64,000 nucleotides of DNA from positions 1,132 through 65,131 of the forward strand of contig CADCIN010000005.1 in assembly GCA_902801525.1 (NCBI GenBank), written 5' to 3'. How positions within the stretch are numbered: position 1 is the stretch's first letter; every line of letters starts with the position of its first letter. Source of the DNA: an uncultured Erysipelotrichaceae bacterium. GTDB lineage: Bacteria; Bacillota_I; Bacilli_A; RF39; UBA660. The notes beneath the pieces are model-generated. The model was not told the origin of the DNA. It did no database searches and saw only the letters and a list, made by a program, of their open reading frames with translations. Of this stretch, positions 1,577-56,638 are shown piece after piece. Position numbers and translations under genes: made by a program.

Positions 1577-1602
1577 AAATTATGCGAAAGGCATAATTTT
1601 TT
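1577..1602. terminator. Bidirectional intrinsic terminator between tsaD and sleC
   Basis: AAATTATGC-gaaag-GCATAATTT stem with A/T tracts between convergent genes. Confidence 0.8.
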
Positions 1603-2945
1603 TATCTTTTAGAAAGTTCAACAATTTTCTTCCATAGTAAAGGACCAACAATTCCATTAACATCAAAATTATAATCATTCTGCAGTTTTTTTATAGAGCT
1701 TTCAGTGAGTTCATCAAAAACACCATTTACTCTAACACCAGGAATTGATTTATCAAACCTACAAATTTTTAGTAAGAAACCCTGTAATCTTTTAATATCA
1801 TCACCACTCATACCATAAGTTAAAAAATAATCAGGATAAAGTTCTAATACAAATTCAGAATAAATACTTGGATAACTTTTTAATAATTTATCATATACAT
1901 CTCTTAAAACTTTCCAGTCAGAATAAGTAATAATTCCTGTAACAGGTAAATTATATTTTTTTTGAAAAGCCATTACCATAGTTTTAGTATTATCATTATA
2001 TACAGAATTTGTTTTTAAATTTGGAATATCAGAGTCAATAAAAGAAATAGTGTTTAAAAAGTAGTGAACGTACTCAACTTGAATACCGGTATCACCATAT
2101 TTGAGTTCATCTTTATAAAGAAAATCTACTTCTTGCGGTGTAAGTCCTTCTGAGTATAAGTCGAATAGTTTTTTAACACTTGTATATATATACTTAATTT
2201 TATACCATGTTGCTTTATCAACTTGACCAGTAATTGGTAATGAAAATATTTCTTGAAATTTTTTTACTGCTTCATCAGTTTTGGAATCATATAGTCCCAA
2301 GTTTCCAGGAATTTCTGGAATAGCAGGGTAATTTATTCTAATTCTATTTAAATCTCTTTGTATTTCCATTACTGGATTACCAGGACTACCAAGCTTTAAC
2401 GTGTATCCAGGGAAACCATATTGATTTTCACCAACAGGAGCATCTTTAAAGATAGATATATCATTCCCATAATAATATTTTAATATTTCTATCGGAGTTT
2501 TATTATTATTTGCTAGATCAACGCTTCCCCATTGAGAAAGACCATTACAAGTTTTTTTTCTACCATCACAATAACTTGTAAAATATGGCTGAATTTGATT
2601 TGATTTAACAACATAATCATTAAATAATTCTTGAACAATATTATTAATATTTTCATAAATAGCTCTATCCTTGATATATGTTTGATCGTATACGGGTGAA
2701 CTGGTAATATCAAAATTATATCCCTTACTTTTGTACCATTCGTTGTAAATTCTATTCATAGCAAATGATATTATTGCATAAATATTTGCCTTTAGAGAAT
2801 TAACCGGCCAAGTAGGATATAATTCGCTAGATGCAACATTACTTATATAATCTGAAAAATTAACACTAATATTTTCAGCAGCAGTATTTGGAGCACCTAA
2901 ATGTACTATTATTGAATTAGGTACTATTGGATATCTAATTGCCAT
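1602..2945 (-). CDS. sleC: SleC-type spore cortex-lytic enzyme (SpoIID-like catalytic domain plus peptidoglycan-binding repeats)
   Basis: IIVHLGAP, YISNVASSELYPTWP, FDITSS..YDQ, YCDG...CNGLSQWGS, then several PG_binding_1-like repeats (LKLGSPG..V..IQ..L, VKKFQ..F.LP.TG.VD..TW). ATG 2945 preferred. Confidence 0.8.
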   Translation of the reverse strand: MAIRYPIVPNSIIVHLGAPNTAAENISVNFSDYISNVASSELYPTWPVNSLKANIYAIISFAMNRIYNEWYKSKGYNFDITSSPVYDQTYIKDRAIYENINNIVQELFNDYVVKSNQIQPYFTSYCDGRKKTCNGLSQWGSVDLANNNKTPIEILKYYYGNDISIFKDAPVGENQYGFPGYTLKLGSPGNPVMEIQRDLNRIRINYPAIPEIPGNLGLYDSKTDEAVKKFQEIFSLPITGQVDKATWYKIKYIYTSVKKLFDLYSEGLTPQEVDFLYKDELKYGDTGIQVEYVHYFLNTISFIDSDIPNLKTNSVYNDNTKTMVMAFQKKYNLPVTGIITYSDWKVLRDVYDKLLKSYPSIYSEFVLELYPDYFLTYGMSGDDIKRLQGFLLKICRFDKSIPGVRVNGVFDELTESSIKKLQNDYNFDVNGIVGPLLWKKIVELSKR

Positions 2946-3357
2946 ACATGTCGAATCTCTCAATATTTATTTTTGGAATTATATTTATATACTGAATTAG
3001 ATCAGCACCACAGCATAATGAAATATTATACTTTTTTAAGAAATCATCTTTTTTATATTCAGCAATAATTTCATAAGTAGTAAAATTAGGAATTTCTAAA
3101 TTACTTATTATTCTTTTTGGAGTAGGTAATTTAATATTATTAATCATACCGCTTTTATCAGTATACCCTTCAAAAAATATGATATTATTATTACCAATTT
3201 TTTTTTCTACTATAATTTTAACATTTTCAACAGGAAGTGCTTCATTTATTGAATTAGCACGTATTTTTAAAGTCCCCATACCAGAATTATTAGATATAAA
3301 ATTATTAAACTCAACATCATTTTTAAGTTTATCTACATCAGTTATATTAATATTCAT
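2935..3357 (-). CDS. Protein resembling the SleC N-terminal pre-domain, encoded as a separate ORF
   Basis: GTLKI...LPVENVKIIV...TDKSGMINNIKLPTP pattern resembles the N-terminal prepeptide region of clostridial SleC; overlaps the sleC start by 11 nt. Confidence 0.55.
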   Translation of the reverse strand: MNINITDVDKLKNDVEFNNFISNNSGMGTLKIRANSINEALPVENVKIIVEKKIGNNNIIFFEGYTDKSGMINNIKLPTPKRIISNLEIPNFTTYEIIAEYKKDDFLKKYNISLCCGADLIQYINIIPKINIERFDMYGN

Positions 3358-3365
3358 AAAACCTC

Positions 3366-4025
3366 CTAAATATTTAATTTTTGCCCTATACTTAAATTTG
3401 AATCAGTTAAATTATTTTTATTAATTATACTGTTAACAGAAGTATTAAATTTATTTGCAACTGAGTATAAAGTATCACCTTTTTGAACAATATATGTTTT
3501 AGCAGATGTTGTATCCCCAAAACACTCTTCAAATTCCGTACCAGTATCAGGCAGTCTTATTTTTATATTTTGACCAATACTTAAATTCGTCGTATTAAAA
3601 TTATTATCATTCATTATTATACTGATTGAAGTATTATATTTATTAGCAATAGAATATAAATTATCACCTTTTTTTACAACATAATTGAAATAAGAAGGTA
3701 AACTTGATACAGTATTATTTGATTCAGGTACTAATAATATTTTACCGATACTTAGATTTGTAGATTTTAAATTATTTAATTTTATTATTTGATTAACACT
3801 AGTTTTATATCGAGTTGCAATATTATAAAGACTATCACCTTTTTTTACTACGTAAGAAAAACTATTATCAGGATTAGTTCCAGATACACTTGGAATTTTT
3901 AAAACTTGTCCAACATTAATACTTGTAGAATTTAAATTATTAAGCTTAATTAAATCATTTACAGATACACCATACTGATTACTAATACCATATAATGTAT
4001 CGCCAGGTTTAACAGTATAACTCAC
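3366..4025 (-). CDS. LysM-repeat protein (4 LysM domains), probably spore-associated
   Basis: Four Y.VK.GD.LY.IA repeats; no signal peptide or catalytic domain seen. Confidence 0.9.
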   Translation of the reverse strand: MSYTVKPGDTLYGISNQYGVSVNDLIKLNNLNSTSINVGQVLKIPSVSGTNPDNSFSYVVKKGDSLYNIATRYKTSVNQIIKLNNLKSTNLSIGKILLVPESNNTVSSLPSYFNYVVKKGDNLYSIANKYNTSISIIMNDNNFNTTNLSIGQNIKIRLPDTGTEFEECFGDTTSAKTYIVQKGDTLYSVANKFNTSVNSIINKNNLTDSNLSIGQKLNI

Positions 4026-4070
4026 TAAATCACCTCAATAAATTATATTGTATTAAATTAAAAATATTAT

Positions 4071-4871
4071 TCAAATTAAAGTCTGATGTAATTTTTTTTC
4101 GAACTTCTCAATTAAATAATAAAATATATAAGAAAATAATCCTAAAATAATAACACCAGTTAAAACTAAATCAATATTAAAAATTTGTGAACCATACATA
4201 ATTAAATAACCAATGCCATTTTTAGAAACTAGTAATTCACCCATAATAACACCAATGAAATTCATAGAAACATTTACCTTAAAAATACTTATTAAATTAG
4301 AAATATTAGATGGTAGAATGCATTTTTTAAACATCATCCACTTACTTGATTTAAATATTTTCATTAATAAAATATAATCTTTATTAACAGATATAAAAGA
4401 GTTATAAATATTTATAGTTGCAACAAAGAAACTAATTAAAATAGCCATAAAAATAATAGATGAAATACCAGAACCAACCCAAATAATAATTAAAGGACCT
4501 AGTGCAACCTTAGGTAATGAATTAAGTACTGCAATAAAAGGATCTAATATTTTTGAAAGAAGTTTAAAATTCCATAAAAAATAAGAAAAAACAATGGAAA
4601 GAAAAAAAGAAATAATACTACAAATAAATACTTCAAAAATTGTAATACTTATATTATAAATTAAATTGCCTTCAAAAAATAAATCAATAGTAGTATTTAA
4701 TAATTTTAAAGGAGAAGAGAAGAGAAAACTATTTATTATGTTAAATACAGAAAGTAATTGCCAGCTAATTAAGAAAACCAAAATAATTAAAAATCTAAAA
4801 AAAATAATTTTTCTTTTTTCTCGTTTTTTATTATTTAAATAATAGGTATGTTCACTACTATAGTTATTCAT
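4071..4871 (-). CDS. NitT/TauT-family ABC transporter permease
   Basis: Multiple TM segments, NSLPKVALGPLIIIW, VIMGELLVSKNGIGYLI motifs. Confidence 0.9.
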   Translation of the reverse strand: MNNYSSEHTYYLNNKKREKRKIIFFRFLIILVFLISWQLLSVFNIINSFLFSSPLKLLNTTIDLFFEGNLIYNISITIFEVFICSIISFFLSIVFSYFLWNFKLLSKILDPFIAVLNSLPKVALGPLIIIWVGSGISSIIFMAILISFFVATINIYNSFISVNKDYILLMKIFKSSKWMMFKKCILPSNISNLISIFKVNVSMNFIGVIMGELLVSKNGIGYLIMYGSQIFNIDLVLTGVIILGLFSYIFYYLIEKFEKKLHQTLI

Positions 4872-5031
4872 TTAAATCCCTCCAAATTAAATTGAAATAG
4901 TTATTAAATTCCTTGCTATTTCTATTTTCCATTGGAGTTTTTCTTTGTTCATAATTTATATTATAAATATTTTTTATGGAAGCTGGCCTTTTTGAAAAAA
5001 CAATGACTCTATCTGACATACTAATTGCTTC
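4864..5031 (-). pseudogene. 3' fragment of the interrupted ABC ATPase (EAISMSDRVIVFSKRP...WRDLNE*)
   Basis: Continues in frame from the 5' fragment at 11531-12105 once the element is removed (HDIG-E-AISMSDRVIV). The track ORF 4864..5103 has a spurious element-derived N-terminus. Confidence 0.92.
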
Positions 5032-5063
5032 GACTAGAAAAAAAATAAGCATGACTTTTAAAA
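5021..5063. other. attL junction (host B arm, TC core, element P' arm)
   Basis: Host frame ends at TC 5030-5031. The reconstituted attB has an imperfect inverted repeat ATTGCT-TC-ACCAAT (5/6). Confidence 0.85.
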
Positions 5064-5145
5064 CTATTGATATATAAGGAAAAAGTATAGAATTAAAATG
5101 CATATTTAATACTATTTTTAAGTCATAAAGAAGGGAGATGAAATT

Positions 5146-5976
5146 TTGTCAAAATGTGAAGTAATAGCAGTTGCAAATCAAAAGGGAGGAGTTGGTAAAA
5201 CAACAACAACTTTTACATTAGGAGTAGCTTTAGCAAAACTGGGTAAAAAGGTATTATTAATTGATGCAGATCCGCAAGGTGATTTAACTACATGTATGGG
5301 ATGGCATAATCCAGATGATATACCAGATACTCTAGCTAGCTTAATGGAAAGTTCAATACTTGGAAATGAAATTAATACTAAAGGAGTAATTCTACATCAT
5401 AATGAAAATGTAGATTTAATTCCATCTAACATAGAACTATCACCAATAGAAGTTAGTTTAGTAAAAGCTAACCATCGTGAAACAATAATGAAACAATGTC
5501 TGACAGATCTAAAAGAGAACTATGATTATATTTTGATTGATTGTATGCCTAGTTTAGGATTGATAACAGTTAATGCTTTAGCTAGTGCAGATAAAGTAAT
5601 AATACCAGTTCAATCTCAGTTTTTAGCAGCTAAGGGTATGAACCATTTAATGAGTTCTATATTAAAAATAAGAAAAGGAATAAACCCTAATCTTAAAATA
5701 GAAGGTATTCTATTTAATATAGTAGATGGTAGAACAAAACTAACAAAAGAAATTACTAAAGAACTAATTAATACATATGGAAAAGTATTTAAGGTGTTTA
5801 ATTCAGTAATACCTAAAACAACAAAGATAGCAGAAGCAAGTAAAGAAGGTAAAAGCATATTCTTACATGATAAAAGAAATAAAGGTGCATTAGCATATGA
5901 AAACCTAGCTAAGGAGGTAATAAACAATGGAAGAGAAAGAACAAAATCTTCTAAAGCCAACATTCAATCTAGATGA
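5146..5976 (+). CDS. parA: ParA/Soj-family ATPase (element-borne)
   Basis: Deviant Walker A NQKGGVGKTTT, IDADPQG, IDCMPSLG. Confidence 0.95.
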   Translation: MSKCEVIAVANQKGGVGKTTTTFTLGVALAKLGKKVLLIDADPQGDLTTCMGWHNPDDIPDTLASLMESSILGNEINTKGVILHHNENVDLIPSNIELSPIEVSLVKANHRETIMKQCLTDLKENYDYILIDCMPSLGLITVNALASADKVIIPVQSQFLAAKGMNHLMSSILKIRKGINPNLKIEGILFNIVDGRTKLTKEITKELINTYGKVFKVFNSVIPKTTKIAEASKEGKSIFLHDKRNKGALAYENLAKEVINNGRERTKSSKANIQSR

Positions 5977-6880
5977 CTTCTTTACTACTCAGGAACAAAG
6001 AGATGAAAAAACAAAAGAAAAGGTAGAAGAAATTGATATCTCATTGATAGATAACTTTCCGAAACATCCATTTAAAGTATTAGAAAATGAAGATTTAGAA
6101 AAACTAAAAAATAGTATAGTAGAACATGGAGTGTTAGAGCCTATATTAGTTAGGCCAAAAGAAAATGGAAGATTTGAAATAATATCAGGTCATAGAAGAA
6201 AAAGAGCAAGTGAGCTTTTAGGAATAAGTACTATAAAAAGTATAGTTAAAAATTTAGATGATGATACTGCAATAATAAATATGGTAGATAGTAATATTCA
6301 TAGAGAAAAGATATTACCAAGTGAAAAAGCATTTGCATATAAAATGAAATATGAAGCATTAAAACACCAAGGTAAAAAAAGTTATTTAACTTCTGGACCA
6401 TTGGACCAGAAGTTGAGTGCAGAACAAATAGGAACAGAACATGGTGAAAGTGAAAAAACAGTAAGAAGATATATAAGACTTACACATTTAATTCCAGAGT
6501 TATTAGAAATGGTAGATAATTCGGAGTTAGACAAAGTACCGACAATATCAAAAAGACCAGCAGCCGAATTGTCATACCTAAAAGAAAATGAACAGAAATG
6601 GTTACTAAATTCTATTGGATATAGTGACGCAACACCATCACTTGCACAAGCTATTAAATTAAAAAAACTAAGTCAGACAAATAAATTAACAGAGGATGTA
6701 ATGGACGATATTCTAAGTGAACAAAAAGCAAATCAAATTTATAAAGTCAGAATAAGTGAGGATAAGTTAAGAAACTATATTCCAAAAAATGTTAAAGTAG
6801 ACGACATGGAAGGATTTGTTCTTAAAGCAGTAGAATATTATTCAAAACATTTGAAATCTAGAGATAGGGATTCAAGATAA
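5927..6880 (+). CDS. parB: ParB/Spo0J-family partition protein (element-borne)
   Basis: GVLEPILVRP, IISGHRRKRA (ParB box), SNIHRE, HTH region ESEKTVRRYIRL; overlaps parA. Confidence 0.92.
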   Translation: MEEKEQNLLKPTFNLDDFFTTQEQRDEKTKEKVEEIDISLIDNFPKHPFKVLENEDLEKLKNSIVEHGVLEPILVRPKENGRFEIISGHRRKRASELLGISTIKSIVKNLDDDTAIINMVDSNIHREKILPSEKAFAYKMKYEALKHQGKKSYLTSGPLDQKLSAEQIGTEHGESEKTVRRYIRLTHLIPELLEMVDNSELDKVPTISKRPAAELSYLKENEQKWLLNSIGYSDATPSLAQAIKLKKLSQTNKLTEDVMDDILSEQKANQIYKVRISEDKLRNYIPKNVKVDDMEGFVLKAVEYYSKHLKSRDRDSR

Positions 6881-6906
6881 AATCCCTTCTTACAATTAAC
6901 CCTTAT

Positions 6907-6937
6907 TACTTACTGAAAATATAATACTTACTGAAAA
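6907..6937. repeat. 13-bp direct repeat TACTTACTGAAAA x2 downstream of parB
   Basis: Copies at 6907-6919 and 6925-6937 in an AT-rich intergenic region. Confidence 0.6.
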
Positions 6938-7023
6938 AAATATTAGTATATATAAATATATAAATTACACAAGTGACAAATACTAAAACATTAATATAAT
7001 TTCTAAATAAGAAAGGAGTCATT

Positions 7024-7227
7024 ATGAAAAAAATTAAATTAGTAAGTATTGCAGTATCAGTAGTAGCTTTAGCAGTAGATTTAGCATATTATAATTACTT
7101 GCCAAAAAATAATAATATGCAAGAAGAAAAAGTAGTAGAGAAAAACAAAATCACTAATAAACCAGAAGAAGAAATAAAGGAAACAAAAGAAAAAGAAATT
7201 CATATAAATTTGGAAAAGATAAAATAA
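7024..7227 (+). CDS. Small protein with an N-terminal hydrophobic segment (possibly frameshifted or truncated)
   Basis: RBS AGAAAGGAG; MKK plus hydrophobic stretch, then K/E-rich tail. An overlapping -1 frame stays open to 7433. Confidence 0.6.
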   Translation: MKKIKLVSIAVSVVALAVDLAYYNYLPKNNNMQEEKVVEKNKITNKPEEEIKETKEKEIHINLEKIK

Positions 7228-7531
7228 GTTATTATGCAGAAGCCGGTACTGACTTTTTTGCATCAAAAGATGTATATAATTATGATTATGATAGATTGAC
7301 GGTAAGTAAAATAATGATTGCATTAACAATATTAGCTCCAGAGGTTGTTGGAAGTTTAGGTCGAGTAAAGTTAATTAATATGGGAGACAAAGCAATTCCA
7401 GCAGTAATAAGATATGCCTCAGCGTTAGGATAACAATCTAAAATAATAGTAAATTATTTACAAATATTCCAGAAATGATTATAATAATGATAGATTACAA
7501 TTAATCTATCATTTTTTTAGGAGGATAATAT

Positions 7532-8215
7532 ATGGACTATTATTCAGGAAAAGAATTATTTATTATTTTTACGTATATTGTGATTTTTCCGATAATAATA
7601 TTTTTTCTAATAAGGACTATAAAAAGTAAGGATAATAGAAGTAAAAAAACAAATGCATTTATAACAGCAATATTTATTTTGATAGCTTTCGAAACACCGT
7701 GGGAAAAAATAATTGATAGTTCTTCTATTAAACTGGATACTATCGAAAAAGCTTTTAAGTTTAATTACGGCAATAAATACGATATAATATTTAAGGAAAA
7801 AGTAAATGATACTTATTTTGTTGTTGGAAAACCAAAAGACAAAAATAATATTTTTTTAGAGTACTCATGTTATAGAAAGACTAAAAACGGATGGAGAATA
7901 ATTAATAGACCTCATGATAATTCTAAAAATGAAATAGTTGATGGAATGTATCAAGTATTTTATTGTAATAATGAAAATATTTCAGGGATATTTATTGAAT
8001 CAGTTCCTATAAAATATAAATTTAAAAGCAACGAAAATATAACGGATAAATATGGAACAGAATTTAAATATATTAAGGATGTAAACAATAAGGCGATTTT
8101 AAACAGTACTACTAAGAGTTATATTTATTTTGCACCTATTAATCATAAAATTTCTAAATCATATTATATGAAAATAAATAAAGAAAAATTTGTTTTTAAA
8201 GACTATATAAAATAA
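7532..8215 (+). CDS. Hypothetical membrane protein (two N-terminal TM segments plus soluble domain), element cargo
   Basis: RBS AGGAGG, 227 aa, two hydrophobic segments; no family recognised. Confidence 0.75.
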   Translation: MDYYSGKELFIIFTYIVIFPIIIFFLIRTIKSKDNRSKKTNAFITAIFILIAFETPWEKIIDSSSIKLDTIEKAFKFNYGNKYDIIFKEKVNDTYFVVGKPKDKNNIFLEYSCYRKTKNGWRIINRPHDNSKNEIVDGMYQVFYCNNENISGIFIESVPIKYKFKSNENITDKYGTEFKYIKDVNNKAILNSTTKSYIYFAPINHKISKSYYMKINKEKFVFKDYIK

Positions 8216-8418
8216 AAATTTAGAAAAGCTAAAAATAGTAAAGAATGACATTTTTTATGATTAATTATCTTTAAAAGAAAAAACTATAGAAATGATGAAA
8301 AACTACTAATAGAAAAAAATGAAAATATATGTTATTATATAGCGCAATAAAATAGTGCTGACTGGGGGTTCAAGTATTTGTTTTATTGCATTTTTATTAT
8401 TATTTAAATTTATACATA

Positions 8419-8460
8419 AGCAAGTACGCTCATTTGATGGGTGTACTTGCTATTTTTTTT
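8419..8460 (+). terminator. Intrinsic terminator upstream of the element sigma factor
   Basis: AGCAAGTAC...GTACTTGCT stem followed by A and T8. Confidence 0.8.
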
Positions 8461-8535
8461 GGATTAAAAATTTATAGGTGTAGAAGTCCACCATCTCTTT
8501 TCAATTTTTGAAAAAAGTTGAAAGGAGATAAGAAA

Positions 8536-9006
8536 ATGGAGAAACTTCCCAAGAGAAGAAAGAAAAAAGATAACCCATATACATTACTAATAGAAAATAG
8601 TAATTACTATGTTTTATTCAAAGATGGTAGATTTATTTTACATAAAATAAAAATATCTAAAGAAATATTTGAAGCTTTTAATAGTTTTGAGCTTGATGAT
8701 AAAAAAATAATGAATGAATTTGACAGACACATTGAACATTATGAGCTTACTGAAGAAAGTATTTATAAAAATAGTAGTCAGAATGAATTAAATGTTGAAA
8801 AACAAGTTATAAAGAAGAGTGAATATGAAACATTAAAAAAGGCAATAAATGAATTACCAATAATACAAAGAGAAAGAGTAAAAAAATATTTCTTTGAAAA
8901 TAAAACATATGATGAAATAGCAAAAGAAGAGTGTGTAAATAAAAGCTCAATAAAAAGAGCAATTGATAATGGATTAGAAAACATATCAAAAAAATTACAA
9001 GATTGA
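8536..9006 (+). CDS. Sigma-70 region-4 family sigma factor/regulator of the type found on Firmicute conjugative elements
   Basis: KRRKKKDNPY N-terminus; C-terminal LKKAINELPIIQRERVKKYFFENKTYDEIAKEECVNKSSIKRAI helix-turn-helix; RBS AAAGGAGA before ATG 8536. Confidence 0.8.
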   Translation: MEKLPKRRKKKDNPYTLLIENSNYYVLFKDGRFILHKIKISKEIFEAFNSFELDDKKIMNEFDRHIEHYELTEESIYKNSSQNELNVEKQVIKKSEYETLKKAINELPIIQRERVKKYFFENKTYDEIAKEECVNKSSIKRAIDNGLENISKKLQD

Positions 9007-9034
9007 TGCAACTTTTTGCTTCTAAGTGAGGAAA

Positions 9035-9358
9035 CAAGTGAGAGGATATATTTCTTCTCACTTGTTCTTTGAAAATACATATTCATTTATCAAATACATA
9101 TAATGATACTCCTGTTTAGTCGACAGTCGAGCGTAGAAGTATTAAAGAGTTAATATGAGCCGTCGCAACAATCGAAAATAGTTTTGAGAGATCCTCAAAA
9201 AGGTGGAATTCCTGTGGTACTGATTTAATCAGACGTTTGATAAAATCCCTAGAACATGAGGGTAATTAGAAAAATATCTTGTTCGAAAAAATAGTTATTA
9301 TAAAAAAATATATATAGGGAGTTATATCTTATTATGGATTAACTCCTTTTCTATATAT
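9035..9358 (+). ncRNA. Candidate structured non-coding RNA or leader between the sigma factor and the recombinase operon
   Basis: 368-bp intergenic region without a long ORF. Hairpins at 9035-9064 (9 bp), 9139-9156, 9182-9200 (7 bp), 9220-9232, 9247-9262 and 9310-9358. Family not identified. Confidence 0.45.
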
Positions 9359-9374
9359 TAGGAAGGAATAAAAA

Positions 9375-9584
9375 ATGAAAAAGTATTTAGTAACTGTTGA
9401 GAGAACACAAATAACCAGTATGATGGTTAGCGCAAACAATTCACAAAGTGCTGTGGCTAAAACAAAAATGATAATTACAAATTGTGAAAAAAGTAATGTA
9501 AATCTTGAAAAGATATTTGATAAAGGTTCTATTTTTAAATATAAAGCAGAAGTAATTTCAGATAAAAGTCAAGACTGCAAATAA
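9375..9584 (+). CDS. Small hypothetical protein (weak resemblance to DpnD/PcfM-like proteins)
   Basis: RBS AGGAAGGA; MKKY.V.V.RT....V.A....A pattern. Confidence 0.6.
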   Translation: MKKYLVTVERTQITSMMVSANNSQSAVAKTKMIITNCEKSNVNLEKIFDKGSIFKYKAEVISDKSQDCK

Positions 9585-9714
9585 ATTATTTGTACAATAT
9601 TATTTTAGATAAAAATAATTTATGATGTGTTTGTTATATCAAACAAATAATTTTATTTAATGATTTTGTATTTTTATTTAAATTACTTAATAGAATTATA
9701 CGGGAGGTATAACT

Positions 9715-9816
9715 TTGAGTAATAAAAATAAAATTGAAATTCCAAAAAGTATTCAATTAAAAATGATAGAGTTTTTTTGGAAAACATCAATACCTAGAAT
9801 GTTAAATGAAAAATAA
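9715..9816 (+). CDS. Unannotated 33-aa protein immediately upstream of the recombinase (MSNKNKIEIPKSIQLKMIEFFWKTSIPRMLNEK)
   Basis: Strong RBS GGGAGGT (9702-9708) 6 nt before TTG 9715; stop TAA 9814-9816; below the ORF-track length cutoff. Confidence 0.65.
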   Translation: MSNKNKIEIPKSIQLKMIEFFWKTSIPRMLNEK

Positions 9817-9835
9817 TAATAAAAAAGGAGGAGTT

Positions 9836-11416
9836 ATGAAAAGCCTAAATGTAATAAATGCAGGATTGTATGCACGTGTATCTACACAAAGACAAGTCTT
9901 AGAGGGTTATTCATTAGATGCCCAAAAAGAGAACTTGGCACATTTTGCTACTTCCCAAGGATGGAATGTATATGACTCCTACGCAGATGAAGGTATTAGT
10001 GGAAAGAATGTTAAAGATAGACCTAGTGTAAAAAAATTAATAAATGATATTAAAGCTAGAAAGATAGATGTAGTTGTTTTATATAAATTTGACAGATTAA
10101 CAAGAGATTCAAGAGACACAGAAGATTTTATAGAATTGATCCAAGAATATGGAATAATGGTTTACACACTTTCAGGTGGTATGGTAGATGTATCTACTCC
10201 TAGTGGTAGATTTAATACAAGAATTCTTGGAGCAGCTGCTCAATTTGAAAGAGAAACAACTATAGATAGAGTAGTAGATGGCTTTATTAAAAAAGTGAAA
10301 AATGGTTATTCATTATGTAGTTCAACTCCATCATATGGATATGATAGACCTAAGCATCAAGAAATTCAAACAATTAATAAGAAAGAAGCCGCAGTAGTGA
10401 AAAGAATTTTTTCATTATATATTAAAGGAAAAACTTTTACAGAAATATGTGATATATTAAATTCAGAAAAAATACCAACAAAAAAGAATGGTATGAAAAA
10501 GAAAAAACGTAATAGTAATGAATACTATACAATAAAAACTGTTTGGTTACCTAAAATAATAAGACTTATTTTATCCAATCCAACATATATTGGAAAAGTT
10601 AGATATGGAGTAAATAGAGAGCAAGTAACTATAGAAGAAGCAGCAGATTATAAAAATAGAGGTAAAGGTTTTATAACAAAAGGATTGCATGAGGCAATAA
10701 TTGATGAAAAGACATGGAATAAAGCACAAAATAAATTGGCTAAAATTAAAAAAAGTTATAAAACCAATTTACCAAAATCTGATGTTTATTATTGTGGAAC
10801 TTTAGTATGTGGGATATGTGGACATCCACTTACAACAAATAGAACTAACAAAAAAAGAAAAGATGGAACTACCTTAGTACATAATGGATATAGATGTGTA
10901 AATAGAGAAAAGAAACTATGTCCAGCTTTAGGTATTAGTCACAAAAAAGTAGAAACAGCGTTTTTAGGATATATGGAAAAACTAGAAGATTTAAAAGATA
11001 TAGAAAAATATAAACCAAATCAAGAAGATGAAAATGAATTAGAATTAACTTCACTAAAAAATAGAAAAAACCAAAGATTAAATAAAAAGAAAGAAATAAT
11101 GAATTTATTTATGGAAGATAAAATTGAATATGAAGAATATACAATAATGAAAGAAAAAATAGAGAAAGAGTATGAAGATATTTCCAATGAGATAAAAAAA
11201 ATAGAAAAAATGAGAGAAGGTATAAAGAAAAAACCAACAGTTTCTAATATAACAAAAAGTATAAGAGATCATTGGGATTATTTATCAAACGATGAGAAAT
11301 ATCAATTTCTAACAGAGTTTGTTAAAAAAATTGTAATAGTAAATAAAAGTAAAGATAAAATTAATGGTATTCCAGAAATTATTGATGTAGAATTTTATTC
11401 AGAAGAGACATTTTAA
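9836..11416 (+). CDS. Large serine recombinase (resolvase + recombinase + zinc-ribbon/coiled-coil)
   Basis: YARVSTQRQ catalytic Ser, Y.DEGISG...DRP, KFDRLTR, PSYGY, NPTYIG, LVCGICG...YRC...C zinc ribbon; RBS AAGGAGGAG before ATG 9836. Confidence 0.97.
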   Translation: MKSLNVINAGLYARVSTQRQVLEGYSLDAQKENLAHFATSQGWNVYDSYADEGISGKNVKDRPSVKKLINDIKARKIDVVVLYKFDRLTRDSRDTEDFIELIQEYGIMVYTLSGGMVDVSTPSGRFNTRILGAAAQFERETTIDRVVDGFIKKVKNGYSLCSSTPSYGYDRPKHQEIQTINKKEAAVVKRIFSLYIKGKTFTEICDILNSEKIPTKKNGMKKKKRNSNEYYTIKTVWLPKIIRLILSNPTYIGKVRYGVNREQVTIEEAADYKNRGKGFITKGLHEAIIDEKTWNKAQNKLAKIKKSYKTNLPKSDVYYCGTLVCGICGHPLTTNRTNKKRKDGTTLVHNGYRCVNREKKLCPALGISHKKVETAFLGYMEKLEDLKDIEKYKPNQEDENELELTSLKNRKNQRLNKKKEIMNLFMEDKIEYEEYTIMKEKIEKEYEDISNEIKKIEKMREGIKKKPTVSNITKSIRDHWDYLSNDEKYQFLTEFVKKIVIVNKSKDKINGIPEIIDVEFYSEETF

Positions 11417-11430
11417 AAATGTAAAAAAAG

Positions 11431-11496
11431 AAAAATAGTCACACATAAGACTTTATGGCCTAGGCTAGGAAATCATTCGATAAGCCTATTTTAAAA
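11431..11496. repeat. Internal degenerate attP-like copy
   Basis: 11431-11461 matches 11501-11531 at 29/31 nt. Its right arm (ggctaggaaa..ataagc..ttttaaaa) resembles the element's left end (gactagaaaa..ataagc..ttttaaaa). Confidence 0.75.
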
Positions 11497-11500
11497 GGGT

Positions 11501-11545
11501 AAAAATAGTCACACATAAAACTTTATGACCTCACCAATATCATGA
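11501..11545. other. attR junction (element P arm, TC core, host B' arm)
   Basis: aaaaatagtcacacataaaactttatgacc-TC-accaatatcatg; ATPase homology resumes exactly at TC. Confidence 0.85.
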
Positions 11546-12105
11546 GTAACCATAATAACTGTTTTTTTCTCATTTTTTATAATTTCATATATATCATTAC
11601 CAATTTCAAGTCTTGTTTGATAATCAAGTGCAGAAAGTGGTTCATCTAGCAATAAAATATCAGGATTAACAGCAAGTGTTCTAATTAGTGCGACTCTTTG
11701 TCTCATCCCACCAGATAGACTATTTGGGTAACTAGTTATGAAATTTTCAAGACCGTATTTCTTCAATAAACTTATTACCAATTGTTTATTTTCTACATTT
11801 AAATTATTATTTAACTCTATTCCTAATAAACAATTGTCTAAAATAGTTCTCCAGGGAAAAAGCGAATCTTTTTGTAACATATATGAAATTTTAATATTTT
11901 CATTTATATTAATTGTGCCATCTGACTTATCAATTAAATTAGATAAAATAGATAATATAGTTGATTTTCCACAACCACTTGGACCAACAATAGAAATAAA
12001 TTCACCATTATAAACATCAAAAGATATATTATTTAATGCCATTATTTCTTCCTTATCAGTATGATAAAGTTTTTTTATATCTTTCAAAGAAATAATTTTA
12101 TCCAT
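11531..12105 (-). pseudogene. 5' fragment of the NitT/TauT-family ABC ATPase (interrupted at codon 192)
   Basis: Walker A GPSGCGKS, signature LSGGMRQR, Walker B LLLDE, H-loop VTHD. Reads 6 codons into the element (VIKFYV*, stop at 11509). Confidence 0.92.
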
Positions 12106-12183
12106 AATTAACCTCCAGATATAATATTTTATGAAATAAACATAATTTAGTAATGACTATAAACTAAAAAAGAGAAAATAAGT

Positions 12184-13170
12184 TTATTTCTCTTTAAAAA
12201 ATAATTTATTATAAGAAACTTTATCTTTAATAATACCATAATCAATCATAATATCCTGAAGATGATCAAATGAGTTTTTACTAAAATTAGTGTTTTTTGG
12301 CCAAGCATCAATTTTTTTATATCTTTTAATAGAGTTTGCTAGATCATTTAAAGAAGTATTAGGAAACTGTTTTAAAATAGTGGAAGCTATTTCTTTTTCA
12401 GTATGATTATTAACATAATCCAAACCCATTTGAATAGATTCATTAAACCTTCGAATTAAATCTTTATGTTTATCTAAGTAATTTGATTTAGCAGAGTACG
12501 AAGTATAAGGAACGTTACCAGCAAGTTTTCCAATACTTTCAACAACATAACCATAGCCATTTTTTTCAATTTCAGAAGCATTAGGTTCAAATAAAGAAAC
12601 AAAATCTCCATTTCCACCTATAAAAGAACTACTCATAGATGAAAATTCAATTGAAGTATCAATAGTTAAATCATTTTTAGGATTAATTTTTTTACTTTTT
12701 AGTGCATATTCTAAGGTCATTTCAGGCATTCCACCTGATCTTCCACCAATTATTTTTTTACCTTTTAACTTTTTAAGACTAAAATTTTTAATTTTTTTTC
12801 TAGAAACAATAAAAGATCCATCTTTTTGAGTTAGTTGAGAAAAAGTTTTTAAATAATTTCTTTCACCTGCGTTATAAATATATATAGTTGCTTCACTTCC
12901 ACAAAGACCAACATTGGCATCACCAGATAAAACAGCAGCAGAAACTTTATCAGCACCAGGCGTTAATAAAAGTTCTATATCAATATTATTATTTTTAAAA
13001 TAACCTTTCTCTATAGCAACATATTGAGGAGCATAAAAAACTGTATGTGCAACTTCTGCTAATTTAATATGTTCAAGTTTAGAGTTTTTTTGTGCCTTGC
13101 CAAAAACAAAACTAAATATTAAAGATAAAATAATAATTAATAATAACAAAAATAAAATGTTTTTTTTCAT
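12184..13170 (-). CDS. NMT1/THI5-like ABC transporter substrate-binding protein (YtlA-like)
   Basis: AEVAHTVFYAPQYVAIEKGYF, GRSGGMPEMTLEY; first gene of an SBP-ATPase-permease operon. Confidence 0.88.
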   Translation of the reverse strand: MKKNILFLLLLIIILSLIFSFVFGKAQKNSKLEHIKLAEVAHTVFYAPQYVAIEKGYFKNNNIDIELLLTPGADKVSAAVLSGDANVGLCGSEATIYIYNAGERNYLKTFSQLTQKDGSFIVSRKKIKNFSLKKLKGKKIIGGRSGGMPEMTLEYALKSKKINPKNDLTIDTSIEFSSMSSSFIGGNGDFVSLFEPNASEIEKNGYGYVVESIGKLAGNVPYTSYSAKSNYLDKHKDLIRRFNESIQMGLDYVNNHTEKEIASTILKQFPNTSLNDLANSIKRYKKIDAWPKNTNFSKNSFDHLQDIMIDYGIIKDKVSYNKLFFKEK

Positions 13171-13188
13171 AAATCTCCTTTCACTAAA

Positions 13189-13216
13189 TTATTATATGAA
13201 AGATCAAAAAAAAGGT
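13189..13216 (-). promoter_or_regulatory. Sigma-K/sigma-E-like (mother-cell) promoter for the ABC operon
   Basis: Minus strand AC-N16-CATATAATA, matching the B. subtilis sigma-K pattern AC-N16/17-CATANNNTA, just upstream of RBS GAAAGGAG. Confidence 0.5.
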
Positions 13217-13287
13217 TATATTTGACATATTTTTCTTGAAAAAAAGCGAAAAATGTATATAATAATACACTGTACATAAGAAAACAC

Positions 13288-13316
13288 TTGCATTTTCATA
13301 AATCTTGTGTTATAAT
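13288..13316 (+). promoter_or_regulatory. Sigma-A promoter of the adhesin-sortase locus
   Basis: TTGCAT-17-TATAAT with extended TG. Confidence 0.7.
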
Positions 13317-13335
13317 ATGACCACATTGAGGGGGA

Positions 13336-15159
13336 ATGGATATGAAAAATAAATTTTCAAAAATAATGAAATTATTCGCAATGATAATAATTTCGGTTAC
13401 AGGCTTAATGAGTACTGTAACAAATGTTAGTGCAGTACCAAGCACTATAACAGTTGGTGGAACAGAAGCAATACCAAAATTAATTGGTGGAACATATTTT
13501 GCATCAATGAGAACTACAGATGGTGGATATGCATACTGTCTAGATATCAATAAAACTACAGTATCGAATCAAACATTAAGTTTAGTTGGTGAAATGGATG
13601 CTGGAATGGCATACATCTTACAAAATGGTTATCCTTCAAAAGGAATAACTGGTAATAGAACATACGATATTTATATTACACAAACAGCAGTTTGGTGGTA
13701 TTTAGATAATACTACTGGATCATCAAATCTTGGATCAGGATTTAAATCTACAGCATCAGATCCATATGGATTAAGACAACATGTTGTAAATTTAGTAAAT
13801 GGTGCAATGAATGCAAGAAATAAAGGATATGCAAAAACATCAATTGCTATTACAAATGGAAATCAACAAATGAAATTAACTGCTGATAAAAACTACTATG
13901 AAACATCACCTATGGGTGTAACAGGTTCTAACTTTGGAACATATAAAGTAACAATCTCAGGAGCCCCAGCAGGATCAGGAATTGCAAATACATCAAATCA
14001 ACCAAAAGATGTTTATGCTCCAAATGAACAATTTAAAATATTAGTACCTGCATCAAGTGTTAAATCAACATCAGTAAATATAACAGTAAATGTTACTGCA
14101 ACAGGAACAACATATAGAGCTTATCAATATAAGCCAAACTCATCAACATATCAAAATGTTGTATCATCAGTATTACAACCAGTTACAGAAACTGTTAATG
14201 CTAATACTACAGTTAATATTCAAACATCAAAACTTGAAATTATTAAGATTGATTCAGAAACAGGTAAGGTTTTAGCAGGAGCTAAATTAGTACTTAAGAA
14301 TTCAGCTGGAACAACAGTTGCAGCTTGGACAACAACAACATCGAAATATACAATTGATAATTTAGCAGATGGAACATATAAGTTATATGAAGTAACTGCA
14401 CCAACCGGTTATGTAAAAATGACAGATCCAATGACAGTTACAATTACACCATCACATAGACAACAATTAATTCAAGTTAAAAATACAGTTAAAAAAGGTC
14501 AAATAAGTATTCTAAAAGTTGATAAAGAAACTAAAAAATCAATTGCAGGAGCTGAACTTGTATTAAAAGATTCTAATGGAAAAGTAGTAGATAAATGGAT
14601 ATCTAAATTAACAGCACATGTTGTTAAAGACTTACCAAATGGAACATATACAATTGAAGAAATTTCTGCACCAAAAGGATACAAAAAATCAGAAAAAGTT
14701 ACAAAAGTTGTCATTAGTGATACTGCAAAATCAGTAGCATTAAATTATGAAAATGAAGCAAAAACAACAGTTGTAAATATTACAAAAATTGATTCAAAAA
14801 CTAAACAAGTTTTACCAGGTGCAGTTTTAGTAGTAAAAGATAAAACTGGAAAAATAATTGCTAAATGGACTACAACTGATACACCACATGTATTATTAGA
14901 TCTTGAAAATGGTACATATACAATCGAAGAAATTTCTGCACCAGATGGTTATGAAAAGAGTAATGAAGTTAAGAAATTTACAATTGATGATGAAAATCAA
15001 TCATTACAAATTACTTTTGAAAATAAACCAAAAGAAGGACAAATAGTTCTTGTACCAGATACTTCTTCATTTGCATCAATTCTATCTTATGTTTTAGGTA
15101 TTGGATTTGTTGTAGCAGCTGCAGGATTTGTATACAAGAATGGTAAAAAAGCAAAATAA
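13336..15159 (+). CDS. Thioester-domain (TED) surface adhesin with three SpaA/Cna-B-like repeats and a VPDTS sorting signal
   Basis: Signal peptide; AYCLD and TQTAVW thioester Cys/Gln motifs; 3x [I.K.D...L.GA.LV.K...W.T...L..GTY...E..AP.GY]; VPDTS-TM-KNGKKAK. Confidence 0.85.
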   Translation: MDMKNKFSKIMKLFAMIIISVTGLMSTVTNVSAVPSTITVGGTEAIPKLIGGTYFASMRTTDGGYAYCLDINKTTVSNQTLSLVGEMDAGMAYILQNGYPSKGITGNRTYDIYITQTAVWWYLDNTTGSSNLGSGFKSTASDPYGLRQHVVNLVNGAMNARNKGYAKTSIAITNGNQQMKLTADKNYYETSPMGVTGSNFGTYKVTISGAPAGSGIANTSNQPKDVYAPNEQFKILVPASSVKSTSVNITVNVTATGTTYRAYQYKPNSSTYQNVVSSVLQPVTETVNANTTVNIQTSKLEIIKIDSETGKVLAGAKLVLKNSAGTTVAAWTTTTSKYTIDNLADGTYKLYEVTAPTGYVKMTDPMTVTITPSHRQQLIQVKNTVKKGQISILKVDKETKKSIAGAELVLKDSNGKVVDKWISKLTAHVVKDLPNGTYTIEEISAPKGYKKSEKVTKVVISDTAKSVALNYENEAKTTVVNITKIDSKTKQVLPGAVLVVKDKTGKIIAKWTTTDTPHVLLDLENGTYTIEEISAPDGYEKSNEVKKFTIDDENQSLQITFENKPKEGQIVLVPDTSSFASILSYVLGIGFVVAAAGFVYKNGKKAK

Positions 15160-53823: not shown

Positions 53824-54162
53824 ATGTTAAAACTCCAGAAACAAGTAAGTAAAGGAATAATGTTTATAAGATTATCGGGAGATTTAAATATTTCTTCTTT
53901 TAATAAGTTATCAGATGAAATAAATTATTTATTATATAATCAAGGTATTCATTATTATGTATTTAACTTTAAAGAAATAGATAAAATAGATCAAAATATA
54001 TTTCTTAAATTACAAAATAAATTAGTTGAAATATTTTTAAGTTGTGGAAAAGTAGTCATGTGTGGATTAAATGAAATAACAAAAAAACAAATAGGTAGTA
54101 CTAAAGATAGTTTATTTTATGTAAATAAAGAAAAAGAAGCATTTAATTATATTTGCTTATAA
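53824..54162 (+). CDS. spoIIAA: STAS-domain anti-anti-sigma factor, SpoIIAA-like (degenerate)
   Basis: IRLSGDL, FNFKEIDKID, VVMCGLN pattern; 0A boxes upstream; directly before sigF and spoVA. Confidence 0.75.
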   Translation: MLKLQKQVSKGIMFIRLSGDLNISSFNKLSDEINYLLYNQGIHYYVFNFKEIDKIDQNIFLKLQNKLVEIFLSCGKVVMCGLNEITKKQIGSTKDSLFYVNKEKEAFNYICL

Positions 54163-54172
54163 AGGAGATAAA

Positions 54173-54811
54173 ATGGATAATATATTAGAGTATGAAAAAT
54201 TAGTAAAAAGTATATGTAATAGGTATTGTAAGTATGATGATTTTGATGATTTATATCAAGTAGGTATGATTGGTCTAATAAATGCTAAAAAAAAATATAA
54301 AGAAAATAAAAATACAAAATTTTCAACATATGCTTATTATTATATATTAGGAGAAGTAACTAAATATATCAGAGAAAATAGACTAATAAAAATAAGTCCA
54401 GAAATAATTAAATTATCAAAAAAAATAGAAAAAGAAAAAAGTGTTATGATTCAAAAATTGGGTAGAGAACCATCCATACTGGAATTATCTTTATATTTAG
54501 GAATAAATGAAGAAAAAATTAAAGAGGTAGAAGAATCAAAAAAAATAATAAAAAGCTTAGATTACAGTGAAGAAGAAATATCTAATCTATATGATTATGT
54601 AAAAGTATATGATAAAAATATTAATGAAAATGTATTAGATTTAAAAAATGAATTAAAAAAATTATCTAAAGAAGAACAAAGTATAATAGTAGATAGATAT
54701 TTTGAAGAAATGTCTCAAAGGGAAACTAGTGAGAATTTAGGAATAAGTCAGCCACAAGTATCCAGAAAAGAAGAAAAAATATTAAAGAAATTAAAAACTA
54801 GATTAATCTAG
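54173..54811 (+). CDS. sigF: Sporulation sigma factor, SigF/SigG family (positionally SigF)
   Basis: DDLYQVGMIGL, KFSTYA...ILGEV, LGREPS, RYFEEMSQRETSENLGISQPQVSR. Confidence 0.8.
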   Translation: MDNILEYEKLVKSICNRYCKYDDFDDLYQVGMIGLINAKKKYKENKNTKFSTYAYYYILGEVTKYIRENRLIKISPEIIKLSKKIEKEKSVMIQKLGREPSILELSLYLGINEEKIKEVEESKKIIKSLDYSEEEISNLYDYVKVYDKNINENVLDLKNELKKLSKEEQSIIVDRYFEEMSQRETSENLGISQPQVSRKEEKILKKLKTRLI

Positions 54812-54850
54812 TTTTTTTGTATATAAAAATATAATTAGTAAACAATAATA

Positions 54851-55300
54851 ATGGTGAATAAAATGAAAAAATTAAAATATGAACAAATAGCAGCTAAATA
54901 TAGACCTATTGAAAATAAAAGAAAAAATATGTTGAAAGCCTTTATATCAGGAGGATTAATAGGAATGTTTGGTGAATTAATAATAGAAATTTTATGTATA
55001 AAGACTCATATATCAAGATCTGAAGCACAAACTTACATGATTATATTCTTTATATTTATATCATCACTATTTACTTCACTTGGTTTCTTTGACAAATTAG
55101 TAACCAAATATAAATGTGGCCTGTTAATTCCAATAACAGGATTTGCTCATTCTATGACCTCAGCTGCACTTGATTATAAAAGAGAAGGCTTAATATATGG
55201 GCTTGGTTCAAATATTTTCAAATTATCTGGTTCGGTAATTGTATATGGTGTATTATCAGCATGGTTTTTTGGAATGATTAGATACTTTATAGGAGGATAA
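54851..55300 (+). CDS. spoVAC: Stage V sporulation protein AC
   Basis: AFISGGLIG, GLLIPITGFAHSMTSAAL, FKLSGSVIVYG. Confidence 0.92.
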   Translation: MVNKMKKLKYEQIAAKYRPIENKRKNMLKAFISGGLIGMFGELIIEILCIKTHISRSEAQTYMIIFFIFISSLFTSLGFFDKLVTKYKCGLLIPITGFAHSMTSAALDYKREGLIYGLGSNIFKLSGSVIVYGVLSAWFFGMIRYFIGG

Positions 55301-55301
55301 T

Positions 55302-56288: not shown

Positions 56289-56638
56289 TGTTATTAGTAA
56301 ATTCATTTTTATTTTGCGGATTACTTTGTTTGATATCTCAAATAATATTAGATAATACAAAACTAACTCCTGGACATATAACAAGTATATTAGTAGTAAT
56401 AGGAGCTTTTCTAGATTCATTTAGTTTGTATGATATAATAATAAAAAAAGTAGGAGGAGGAGCACTTCTACCAATTACAAGTTTTGGACACTCGCTAATA
56501 CATGGAGCACTTGCTAAAACAAGTTCATATGGATTACTTGGGATTTTAATGGGAATGTTTGATTTAACTGCATCAGGTATCACAAGTGCAATCATATTTG
56601 CAGCAATATTTTCATTAATATTCAATCCAAAAGACTAA
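56288..56638 (+). CDS. spoVAE: Stage V sporulation protein AE (SpoVAEb-type)
   Basis: KLTPGHI, GALLPITSFGHSL, FDLTASGI. Confidence 0.9.
   Translation: MLLVNSFLFCGLLCLISQIILDNTKLTPGHITSILVVIGAFLDSFSLYDIIIKKVGGGALLPITSFGHSLIHGALAKTSSYGLLGILMGMFDLTASGITSAIIFAAIFSLIFNPKD

Follow-up and report, generated by a model that had tools for sequence, protein, structure and literature searches.

Large serine recombinase (LSR) elements that interrupt apparently mother-cell-expressed genes, and whose excision rebuilds the gene exactly, have been reported in sigK, spsM, spoVFB, spoVR, gerE and yabG, and a hotspot pattern of insertions at mother-cell genes has been described in the same studies (PMC10747680, PMC4191935, PMC5595907). 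LSR elements also include the conjugative transposons (CTns) of C. difficile, which excise in ordinary cultures (PMC3158075). The window analyzed here, i.e. the whole stretch of 64,000 nucleotides taken from contig CADCIN010000005.1 (positions 1,132 to 65,131), comes from an uncultured spore-forming bacterium of the cattle gut. In this window, a 6,501-bp LSR element splits the ATPase gene of an ATP-binding cassette (ABC) transporter operon that resembles ytlACD of B. subtilis. We consider it highly probable that this is a site-specific LSR element lodged in a vegetatively dispensable transporter gene of the sigma-K type; a ytlC-like ATPase is not among the targets reported in the searchable literature.

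The operon lies on the minus strand in the order substrate-binding protein (SBP), ATPase, permease, which is the ytlACD-type layout: an NMT1-type SBP, a NitT/TauT-type ATPase and a permease in one operon. The element interrupts codon 192 (Glu) of the ATPase gene, and a TC dinucleotide that corresponds, on the coding strand, to the GA of this GAA codon is present at both of its ends (Table 1). Removal of positions 5032–11532 in silico yields a 246-amino-acid (aa) open reading frame (ORF) reading ...MVTHDIGEAISMSDRVIVF... An earlier note on this DNA had described the cut at a shared TC in codon 192, the recovery of a 246-aa ATPase upon removal of the element, and an imperfect inverted repeat, ATTGCT-TC-ACCAAT, in the reconstituted attachment site attB. 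All three observations were borne out: the TC is found at both junctions, a protein identical to the rebuilt one is encoded by three contigs of the same species (L098, L099 and L104, with 0 differences), and the symmetry holds at five of the six positions. The attB sequence is ...CATACTAATTGCT-TC-ACCAATATCATGAGTAACC..., and the junctions predicted for the two products of excision are ...AAAACTTTATGACC-TC-GACTAGAAAAAAAA... (attP, on the circle) and ...CTAATTGCT-TC-ACCAATATC... (attB, at the empty site). The element thus displays what is seen at the ends of LSR elements, namely an identical 2-bp core on both sides, imperfect inverted symmetry and no longer target duplication. The arm motifs flanking the core are conserved in four elements, and rejoining the flanks restores the ORF in all four.

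The recombinase itself, which the earlier note had called intact-looking, has its three domains (Pfam Resolvase, 1e-35; Recombinase, 8e-21; Zn_ribbon_recom, 6e-7) and its serine motif: the active-site segment YARVST aligns with YTRVST of the TP901-1 integrase (3bvp; catalytic domain, E 4e-23). Its start is most likely at 9836, behind the ribosome-binding site AAGGAGGAG, and not at 9806. These domains, the shared core and the empty alleles described below together agree with the central observation of the note, a precise LSR-type interruption of an ABC ATPase gene. The LSR would have recombined an attP with a TC core with a conserved attB located in the H-loop coding region of the ytlC-like ATPase gene, and integration would have split the gene after THDIGE, removing a conserved part of the nucleotide-binding domain. 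Indeed, the nearest solved relatives of the ATPase are CmpD and NrtD, and the stretch encoded by the 3' part aligns to a conserved part of these proteins; as the alignment continues through residues 193–218, truncation removes conserved core sequence. The 5' part of the gene now runs on to 11509, which adds a 6-aa foreign tail (VIKFYV, then a stop codon) and gives a truncated product of 198 aa. We infer that, as long as the element is present, the transporter is very probably inactive. A replacement C terminus supplied by the element was also considered (a tblastn alignment in the related locus L088 reached residue 229) and rejected: the tails that follow THDxxE are unrelated to the native one.

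Natural alleles without the element exist in the same species. Contigs of this species were retrieved using the adjacent 447-aa peptidoglycan-binding protein as a handle, and three of them (L098, L099 and L101) carry the SBP gene, an intact 246-aa ATPase gene and the permease gene with an unbroken site; they align without gaps to the in silico rejoined window, at 99.90–99.94% identity over 12.4–12.9 kb. The empty-site joint (5029 to 11531, 6501 positions skipped, with a 2-bp ambiguity) was also found in assembled contigs of seven sequencing runs (X3, X4, X5, X6, X25, X26 and X27). The comparison across strains that the earlier note had proposed therefore did reveal empty alleles, so that the insertion is not a fixed, decayed scar. 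The empty-site contigs differ from the window by 8–13 single-nucleotide polymorphisms per 12.4–12.9 kb and thus belong to separate strains.

Within the species of the window, the occupied site contains at least three versions of the cargo, with the same ends and at the same position. The ParAB version is found in the window, in contig L097 and in run X1. In a second version (L100, L102 and L105), an RHS-repeat fragment takes the place of window positions 5607–7169, and ParA is cut short; a third (X12, X29 and X30) diverges at 5099 and rejoins the window sequence near 8416. ParA and ParB are therefore exchangeable cargo and not part of the core. Only the empty form was seen in L098, L099, L101 and runs X6 and X25–27, only the occupied form in X12 and X29, and both in X3, X4 and X5; in X4, the depths were 3.8 for the empty form, 6.3 for the occupied form and 11.3 for the flank. 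The two forms share unbranched, mismatch-free flanking contigs of 2.3–6.4 kb in X4 and X5. In X1 (21x), a single unbranched path runs through the right junction, with no empty-site branch. Overall, empty sites accounted for 30–100% of the host depth in the seven runs that have them. Four runs labelled metatranscriptomic (X25–X28) were considered as RNA evidence and set aside: their depth over window positions 3300–13400 is flat and DNA-like, intergenic DNA included, and gives no expression information; X25–27 contain the element-free allele only.

Table 1. Features of the window discussed in the text (window coordinates; L, loci and contigs; X, sequencing runs)
Feature	Position	Strand	Remarks
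SleC-like locus	2935-3357 and 1602-2963	-	two overlapping ORFs, 140 aa and 453 aa
LysM gene	3366-4025		downstream of permease, adjoins transporter
Transporter permease, 266 aa	4071..4871	-	overlaps ATPase stop codon
ATPase 3' part	4864..5031	-	rest of codon 192 to codon 246
attL TC crossover dinucleotide	5030..5031	.	
Integrative element, 6,501 bp	5032..11532	+	every gene on + strand, opposite host operon; absent from L098, L099, L101
Element left arm (P' arm of attP)	5032..5080	+	ATGACT motif ~20 nt from core; kept in L089, L094, L096
ParA-type ATPase, 276 aa, cargo	5146..5976	+	variant L100 has only 165 aa
ParB-type protein, 317 aa, cargo	5927..6880	+	absent in L100, L102, L105 and in the variant of X12, X29, X30
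67-aa protein, function unassigned	7024..7227	+	N-terminal hydrophobic segment; strong sigma-70-like promoter 6973-7000
227-aa membrane protein, function unassigned	7532..8215	+	strong promoter 7457-7485
Terminator	8419-8451		after 227-aa membrane protein gene
Protein with sigma-70 region 4 only, 162 aa	8518..9006	+	39-49% identity to counterparts in L001, L003-L006, L087, L088
pemK RNA motif (Rfam RF02913)	9100..9217	+	51 bits vs gathering score 34.8; 5' leader of 69-aa gene
69-aa protein	9375..9584	+	only in closer relatives; 49-51% identity in L001-L006
Micro-ORF, 33 aa	9715..9816	+	TTG start (...IQLKMIEFFWKTSIPRM...); just upstream of LSR
LSR, 526 aa from likely start	9836..11416	+	Resolvase, Recombinase, Zn-ribbon domains
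Internal degenerate attP copy	11432..11480	+	...TATGGCC-TA-GGCTAGGAAA...; 70 bp inside true right end
Element right arm (P arm of attP)	11481..11530	+	GTCACAC motif ~20 nt from core
attR TC crossover dinucleotide	11531..11532	.	same TC core in L001, L003, L005, L006, L087-L089, L094, L096
ATPase 5' part	11533..12105	-	codons 1-191, first two bases of Glu192 in TC core; Walker A through H-loop
Second sigma-K-type motif, AC-N16-CATAAAATA	12125..12151	-	directly upstream of ATPase start
SBP of transporter (NMT1/SsuA-like), 328 aa	12184..13170	-	Pfam NMT1 in orthologues
Sigma-K-type motif, AC-N16-CATATAATA	13190..13216	-	20 nt upstream of SBP start codon
SigB/F/G-family sigma factor (SigF-like)	54173-54811		
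SpoVAC	54851-55300		
SpoVAD	55302-56288		409 bits, above cutoff

The choice of target is a property of the LSR family. The LSR has thousands of homologues and belongs to a large clade (48–99% identity). Gene neighbourhoods were examined for relatives at 73% down to 48% LSR identity, giving eleven distinct elements, the one in the window included; ten of them share one insertion point, the TC core within the Glu codon that belongs to the THD(I/L)xE motif of an orthologous or paralogous ATPase, with the 3' end of the LSR gene abutting the N-terminal ~195 codons of the ATPase. In L089, L094 and L096, both junctions are on the contig and rejoining gives THD(I/L)AEA(I/V)S, while the site was read from the right junction only in L001, L003, L005, L006, L087 and L088, and in L095 it was assigned solely from how the genes are arranged and where the truncated ATPase lies. 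At the junctions, the TC core is followed by A(G/C)C(A/T)A(T/A)(A/G)TCATG, and the arms bear an inverted (A/G)TGAC(T) ~20 nt out.

The cargo differs widely between these elements. L003 and L087 carry conjugation genes of the type IV secretion type (VirB4/TraG, PrgI, TrbL and CHAP), L001 an RHS/Ntox44 toxin gene, and L089 (8.1 kb) genes for ClpP, a RecA-like protein and a small resolvase; L094 is 4.45 kb long, and L096 (3.0 kb) holds only a hydrolase fragment and a NUDIX gene as cargo. In L087, a diversity-generating retroelement (bAvd and reverse transcriptase, 4264–6204) lies beside the transfer genes. One and the same LSR protein, P0003, occurs in L003, L005 and L006, hosts that differ in their ATPase and SBP sequences, the SBPs being 48–67% identical to that of the window; its identity in divergent hosts shows recent horizontal movement of the LSR family (not of the copy in the window). 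P0003 also occurs in L004, at a non-ABC site, TC-AGCTATAAGATTG (4169–4300), close to genes for an Asp/Glu racemase, GlyRS, IF3, L35 and L20, which looks like a pseudo-attB integration. A scan of metagenome contigs with LSR peptide patterns, which are of low complexity, returned only three distant loci. The element in the window is thus a small, non-conjugative member of a widespread family of integrative elements from gut Bacillota, defined by one LSR clade.

Two further loci deserve mention. In L094, genes for SleC-like, 140-aa and LysM proteins (6965–12186) stand between the ATPase halves, inside bona fide attL and attR sites; in the window (1602–5031), the same three genes are outside the element, downstream of the permease gene. 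In C. difficile CD160 (L078, 5980–6579), a ytlC-like ATPase ORF of 199 aa ends near the residue at which the window ATPase is broken, perhaps as the scar of a former insertion at this site. Interruption of this ORF at the same codon by three recombinases was considered and rejected, what lies downstream being aminotransferase, AbgT, M20 peptidase, MarR and eut genes.

Judged from its genes, the host is an endospore former. The window contains a sporulation cluster (53824–56638) that starts with a 112-aa ORF and the SigF-like factor, continues with SpoVAC and SpoVAD, and closes with a 116-aa ORF, probably SpoVAE; this order is typical of clostridia. The related host of L096 likewise has SpoVAC, SpoVAD and SpoVAE, along with YabG.

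The earlier note had assigned a sigma-K-pattern promoter to the transporter operon, and the comparison of related loci agrees with it. The motif AC-N16/17-CATA-N3-TA is found at −36 to −93 in 23 of the 60 loci with an orthologous SBP gene, compared to 32 of 1443 control upstream regions (2.2%, a count that includes the same SBP genes). The positive loci are all from Bacillota (Bacillus, Paenibacillaceae, Brevibacillus and clostridial metagenome-assembled genomes), and none is proteobacterial or actinobacterial. Close relatives of the window retain CATATAATA while the spacer diverges, and a motif equivalent to the second one (Table 1) precedes the ATPase gene in L003, L005 and L089. Note that what lends support is where the motifs lie and that they are conserved, and not how many there are: the bare pattern AC-N16-CATA-N3-TA has three matches in the window versus 4.25 expected, two of the three being directly upstream of the SBP and ATPase genes. 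No sigma-70-like site was found on the minus strand in the spacer upstream of the SBP gene. The note had also described ytlACD as expressed during sporulation, and published regulons bear this out: ytlA, ytlC and ytlD are listed in the sigma-K regulon of B. subtilis (PMC3416734), and ytlC of C. difficile (CD1927) is sigK-dependent and has a sigma-K promoter (PMC3789822). Given an endospore-forming host and a sigma-K-type promoter, the operon is most likely late, mother-cell-expressed and vegetatively dispensable, which would explain why insertions in it are tolerated. No other sigma-K or sigma-E motif was found between the ATPase gene and the SleC-like gene, so that the insertion may cut the permease, LysM and SleC-like genes off from the sigma-K-type promoters.

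Apart from the LSR, the only gene always found in the family is very small. A micro-ORF of 31–38 codons is located immediately upstream of the LSR start, or overlaps it, in all eight elements for which the region upstream of the LSR was inspected, the smallest included. Its invariant residues include I7, K11, Q14, K16, F20, F21, T24, I26 and P27 (...IQ.KMIEFF.KTSIPRM...), and it matches phrog_30936, a family of unknown function (E 4e-7), with five relatives in a representative library (single-sequence search). In the species of the window, the micro-ORF and the LSR are intact and 99–100% conserved across variants. As no other gene accompanies the LSR in every case, we propose its product as a candidate directionality factor or essential accessory protein. 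The conserved core of the element consists of the micro-ORF and the LSR, with ParA, ParB and the other genes as exchangeable cargo. Were the LSR to excise the element with the help of a directionality factor, for which the micro-ORF product is the most plausible candidate, the ATPase gene would be restored exactly.

In the closer relatives, the micro-ORF and LSR are preceded by a conserved regulatory module that begins with the gene for the region-4 sigma-like protein and continues with a pemK RNA and a small protein, an arrangement reminiscent of the regulatory end of clostridial conjugative transposons. The pemK RNA occupies the same position in five elements (the window, L001 9399–9479, L003 9399–9479, L087 9419–9499 and L100 2369–2486), always with the sigma-like gene on one side and, on the other, the small protein that is encoded upstream of the LSR; the copy in the window has a ~55-nt insertion in its first hairpin. 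A family search with the 69-aa protein returned no match. Upstream of the 69-aa gene, a match to a sigma-E-like promoter at 9079 was considered and discarded, as it is not conserved: in relatives, TTGC(G/A)A-N14-(G/T)ATAAT takes its place.

As the earlier note had stated, no replication (rep), relaxase, conjugation or phage structural genes were found among the proteins of the element in the window by domain search; nor was a conjugation module, a relaxase or an origin of transfer (oriT) recognized. A search of a plasmid collection returned only weak similarity to ParA and ParB, and no related replicon. The element does not stand out by its GC content (26.0%, versus 25.7% for the window). In L100 (3495–6016), a 579-aa RHS-repeat fragment directly precedes the gene for the 227-aa membrane protein, which stands alone in the window; this protein, for which there is no family match, may be an orphan immunity protein for a polymorphic toxin. 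The degenerate attP copy inside the right end has a P arm identical to the real one at 29 of 31 positions, a core that reads TA instead of TC, and a partly similar P' arm. Tandem or nested integration may have left it behind, and no function is evident for it.

The transporter operon looks like a hotspot for serine-recombinase insertions. Four other LSR lineages, 25–29% identical to the LSR of the window, are inserted in the same small cluster. One of them (with DUF4368) splits the ATPase gene near codon 139 in L087 (11492–16264); the SBP gene is interrupted by further LSR elements near residue 195 in L094 (12188–17223) and near residue 148 in L095 (13435–18676); and in L103 (149–2364), from the species of the window, a 521-aa LSR with 29% identity lies at about codon 5 of the LysM gene. 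In L104, an insertion sequence (IS) transposase is found at the position expected for the SBP gene. No secondary LSR insertions were seen in the other flanking genes of these loci, in what is a small and non-unbiased sample.

The genes downstream of the permease had been described in the earlier note as spore-related, with one labelled SleC. The label is only partly justified: the 453-aa ORF has a PG_binding_1 domain and its close homologues carry SpoIID (PF08486), while the name given to the large protein in the sources is just 'peptidoglycan-binding protein'. Its two-ORF layout is kept in L094 and in all same-species contigs and is thus not a frameshift error. Linkage of the LysM/SleC-like cluster to the transporter in distant relatives was looked for and rejected, being limited to the species group of the window and L094. 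At the stop codon of tsaD, a short way downstream of the SleC-like gene, a 12-mer (1560–1571), CTGACATACTAA, is identical to the left arm of attB (5013–5024) in the 3' fragment of the ATPase gene; it may be there by chance (~1 in 100 for the window) or as a trace of an old rearrangement.

Does the element act as a developmental switch? The earlier note had proposed a skin-like rearrangement. In this reading, the element, or at least its micro-ORF and LSR, would be excised in the terminally differentiating mother cell to rebuild the ATPase gene while the forespore genome keeps the element. Part of this proposal stands, namely the precise LSR insertion, the sporulation genes of the host and the sigma-K-type operon; what did not materialize is any circle, or a conserved sporulation promoter at the LSR. 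Such a switch is conceivable, but we consider it unlikely, and the same doubt applies to its presumed outcome, the reconnection of the permease, LysM and SleC-like genes to the sigma-K-type promoters. Arguing for it are the SigF-like, SpoVAC and SpoVAD genes of the host, the promoter motif whose position is conserved among orthologous loci of Bacillota only, the operon's counterparts in the sigma-K regulons of B. subtilis as well as C. difficile, the exactness that excision would have, and the lack of any other sigma-K or sigma-E motif from the ATPase gene to the SleC-like gene. The four further LSR lineages in the cluster match the hotspot pattern of mother-cell genes, and the very reduced elements of L096 and L094, in which LSR and micro-ORF are both intact, look similar to the minimal recombination units of skin, SPbeta and gin. 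The last observation is, however, a biased one, since relatives were sought with the full-length recombinase. Moreover, excision in the mother cell should produce attB and attP in equal amounts, yet the search for the circle junction that the note had called for was negative: no attP junction or loose end was found in the assembled contigs of the 11 runs checked at junction level (X1–X6, X12, X29 and X25–27), despite the abundance of empty sites; as assembly drops rare variants, this excludes circles at empty-site abundance, not low-level ones. The assembled empty alleles come from distinct strains, and X1 shows no empty-site branch at 21x. No conserved sigma-E or sigma-K motif was found upstream of the micro-ORF and LSR or of the 69-aa gene in eight elements (a motif search being a weak test). 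Finally, in a family with regulation of the integrative and conjugative element type, transfer genes and spread across hosts, one would expect excision for transfer in any case. Both models may hold at once: SPbeta, an active phage, is at the same time a developmental intervening element (PMC4191935). A broader version of the idea, according to which uncultured spore-forming gut Bacilli have domesticated or co-opted a clade of minimal micro-ORF–LSR units to serve as a developmental switch, with the 31–38-aa peptide as the smallest known directionality factor and the cluster as a new hotspot for several independent intervening elements, likewise seems unlikely to us.

At the opposite extreme, the element might be an inert remnant, i.e. 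an immobile, decayed fragment of a conjugative element tolerated in a dispensable gene, and its presence or absence might reflect ancestral gain, strain sorting or replacement of the flanks by homologous recombination. The absence of transfer, replication and relaxase genes among its proteins and of attP junctions in the runs checked is compatible with this view, as are the sister variant with a truncated ParA and no ParB, a sign of cargo decay, and the degenerate internal attP copy, which suggests past rearrangement. Nevertheless, both facets of this explanation appear improbable to us: an intact LSR and micro-ORF conserved at 99–100%, at least three cargo versions with identical ends at one site in one species, indicative of continuing turnover, the mismatch-free flanks shared by the occupied and empty forms in X4 and X5, and the recent movement of close LSR relatives between hosts all speak against it.

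We therefore favour a site-specific LSR element in a vegetatively dispensable gene of the sigma-K type. Besides the failure to find attP, several points weigh against this reading. The −10 element of the promoter contains TATAAT, which leaves room for vegetative transcription, and the sigma-K-type promoter is deduced from a motif, albeit one with good comparative support. The ATPase is termed ytlC-like by similarity, and its best NCBIfam match is SaoA, below cutoff. As the element has neither relaxase nor oriT nor transfer genes, it could be an immobile remnant whose only way to move is homologous recombination of its flanks. Instead of a directionality factor, the micro-ORF could encode a leader peptide or serve as a translational-coupling device.

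If excision proves to be sporulation-timed, the transporter operon will join sigK, spsM, spoVFB, spoVR, gerE and yabG, and programmed rearrangement will be known from uncultured gut Bacilli too, and from relatives of conjugative transposons. Regardless of this outcome, the locus defines an LSR clade with a highly conserved attB and several natural attP/attB pairs that can be read from sequence. These pairs and the candidate ultra-short directionality factor should be useful for recombinase tools and for exploring how the specificity of LSRs tracks a conserved coding motif. At least five LSR lineages in one 5-kb cluster with sigma-K-type promoters also make a testable case for late mother-cell genes as safe harbours.

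How, then, does the element compare with described systems? It probably derives from the clostridial LSR conjugative transposons, to which we liken it by layout. With those of C. difficile (CTn2, CTn5/Tn6103 and CTn7), Tn5397/TndX and Tn4451/TnpX it shares a terminal LSR, a 2-bp core, precise regeneration of the target on excision and modular, exchangeable cargo. Region-4 sigma-like genes are found beside the recombinase in the conjugative transposons of C. difficile as well (PMC3158075, PMC6814731), and the relatives of the window element carry VirB4/TraG, PrgI, TrbL and CHAP genes, with the pemK leader in the same module. By contrast, the copy in the window is devoid of conjugation and mobilization genes, and whereas recombinases of the TndX/TnpX type with DUF4368 are multi-target (PMC10083194), the window clade is largely single-target, with ten of eleven elements at one site and one pseudo-site.

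With the sporulation intervening elements skin (sigK), SPbeta (spsM), vfbin (spoVFB), vrin (spoVR), gin (gerE) and yin (yabG), the window element has in common an LSR element placed in an apparently mother-cell gene, exact rebuilding of that gene on excision and a small gene beside the recombinase, a candidate directionality factor. It resembles gin in having no phage genes (PMC5595907), and yin and SPbeta in being present in only some strains (PMC10747680). It differs in that its family is akin to conjugative elements, not prophages, and spreads between species; the circular product and the sporulation-controlled LSR or directionality factor of these systems were not seen for the window element. 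The interrupted operon itself matches ytlA-ytlC-ytlD of B. subtilis and CD1927 of C. difficile in gene order, NMT1-type SBP, NitT/TauT-type ATPase and sigma-K-type motif, but identity to the Bacillus and Paenibacillus homologues is only 44–47%. What is new compared to all of these systems is the ytlC-like ATPase as a target gene and, possibly, a new and very small partner protein of the recombinase.

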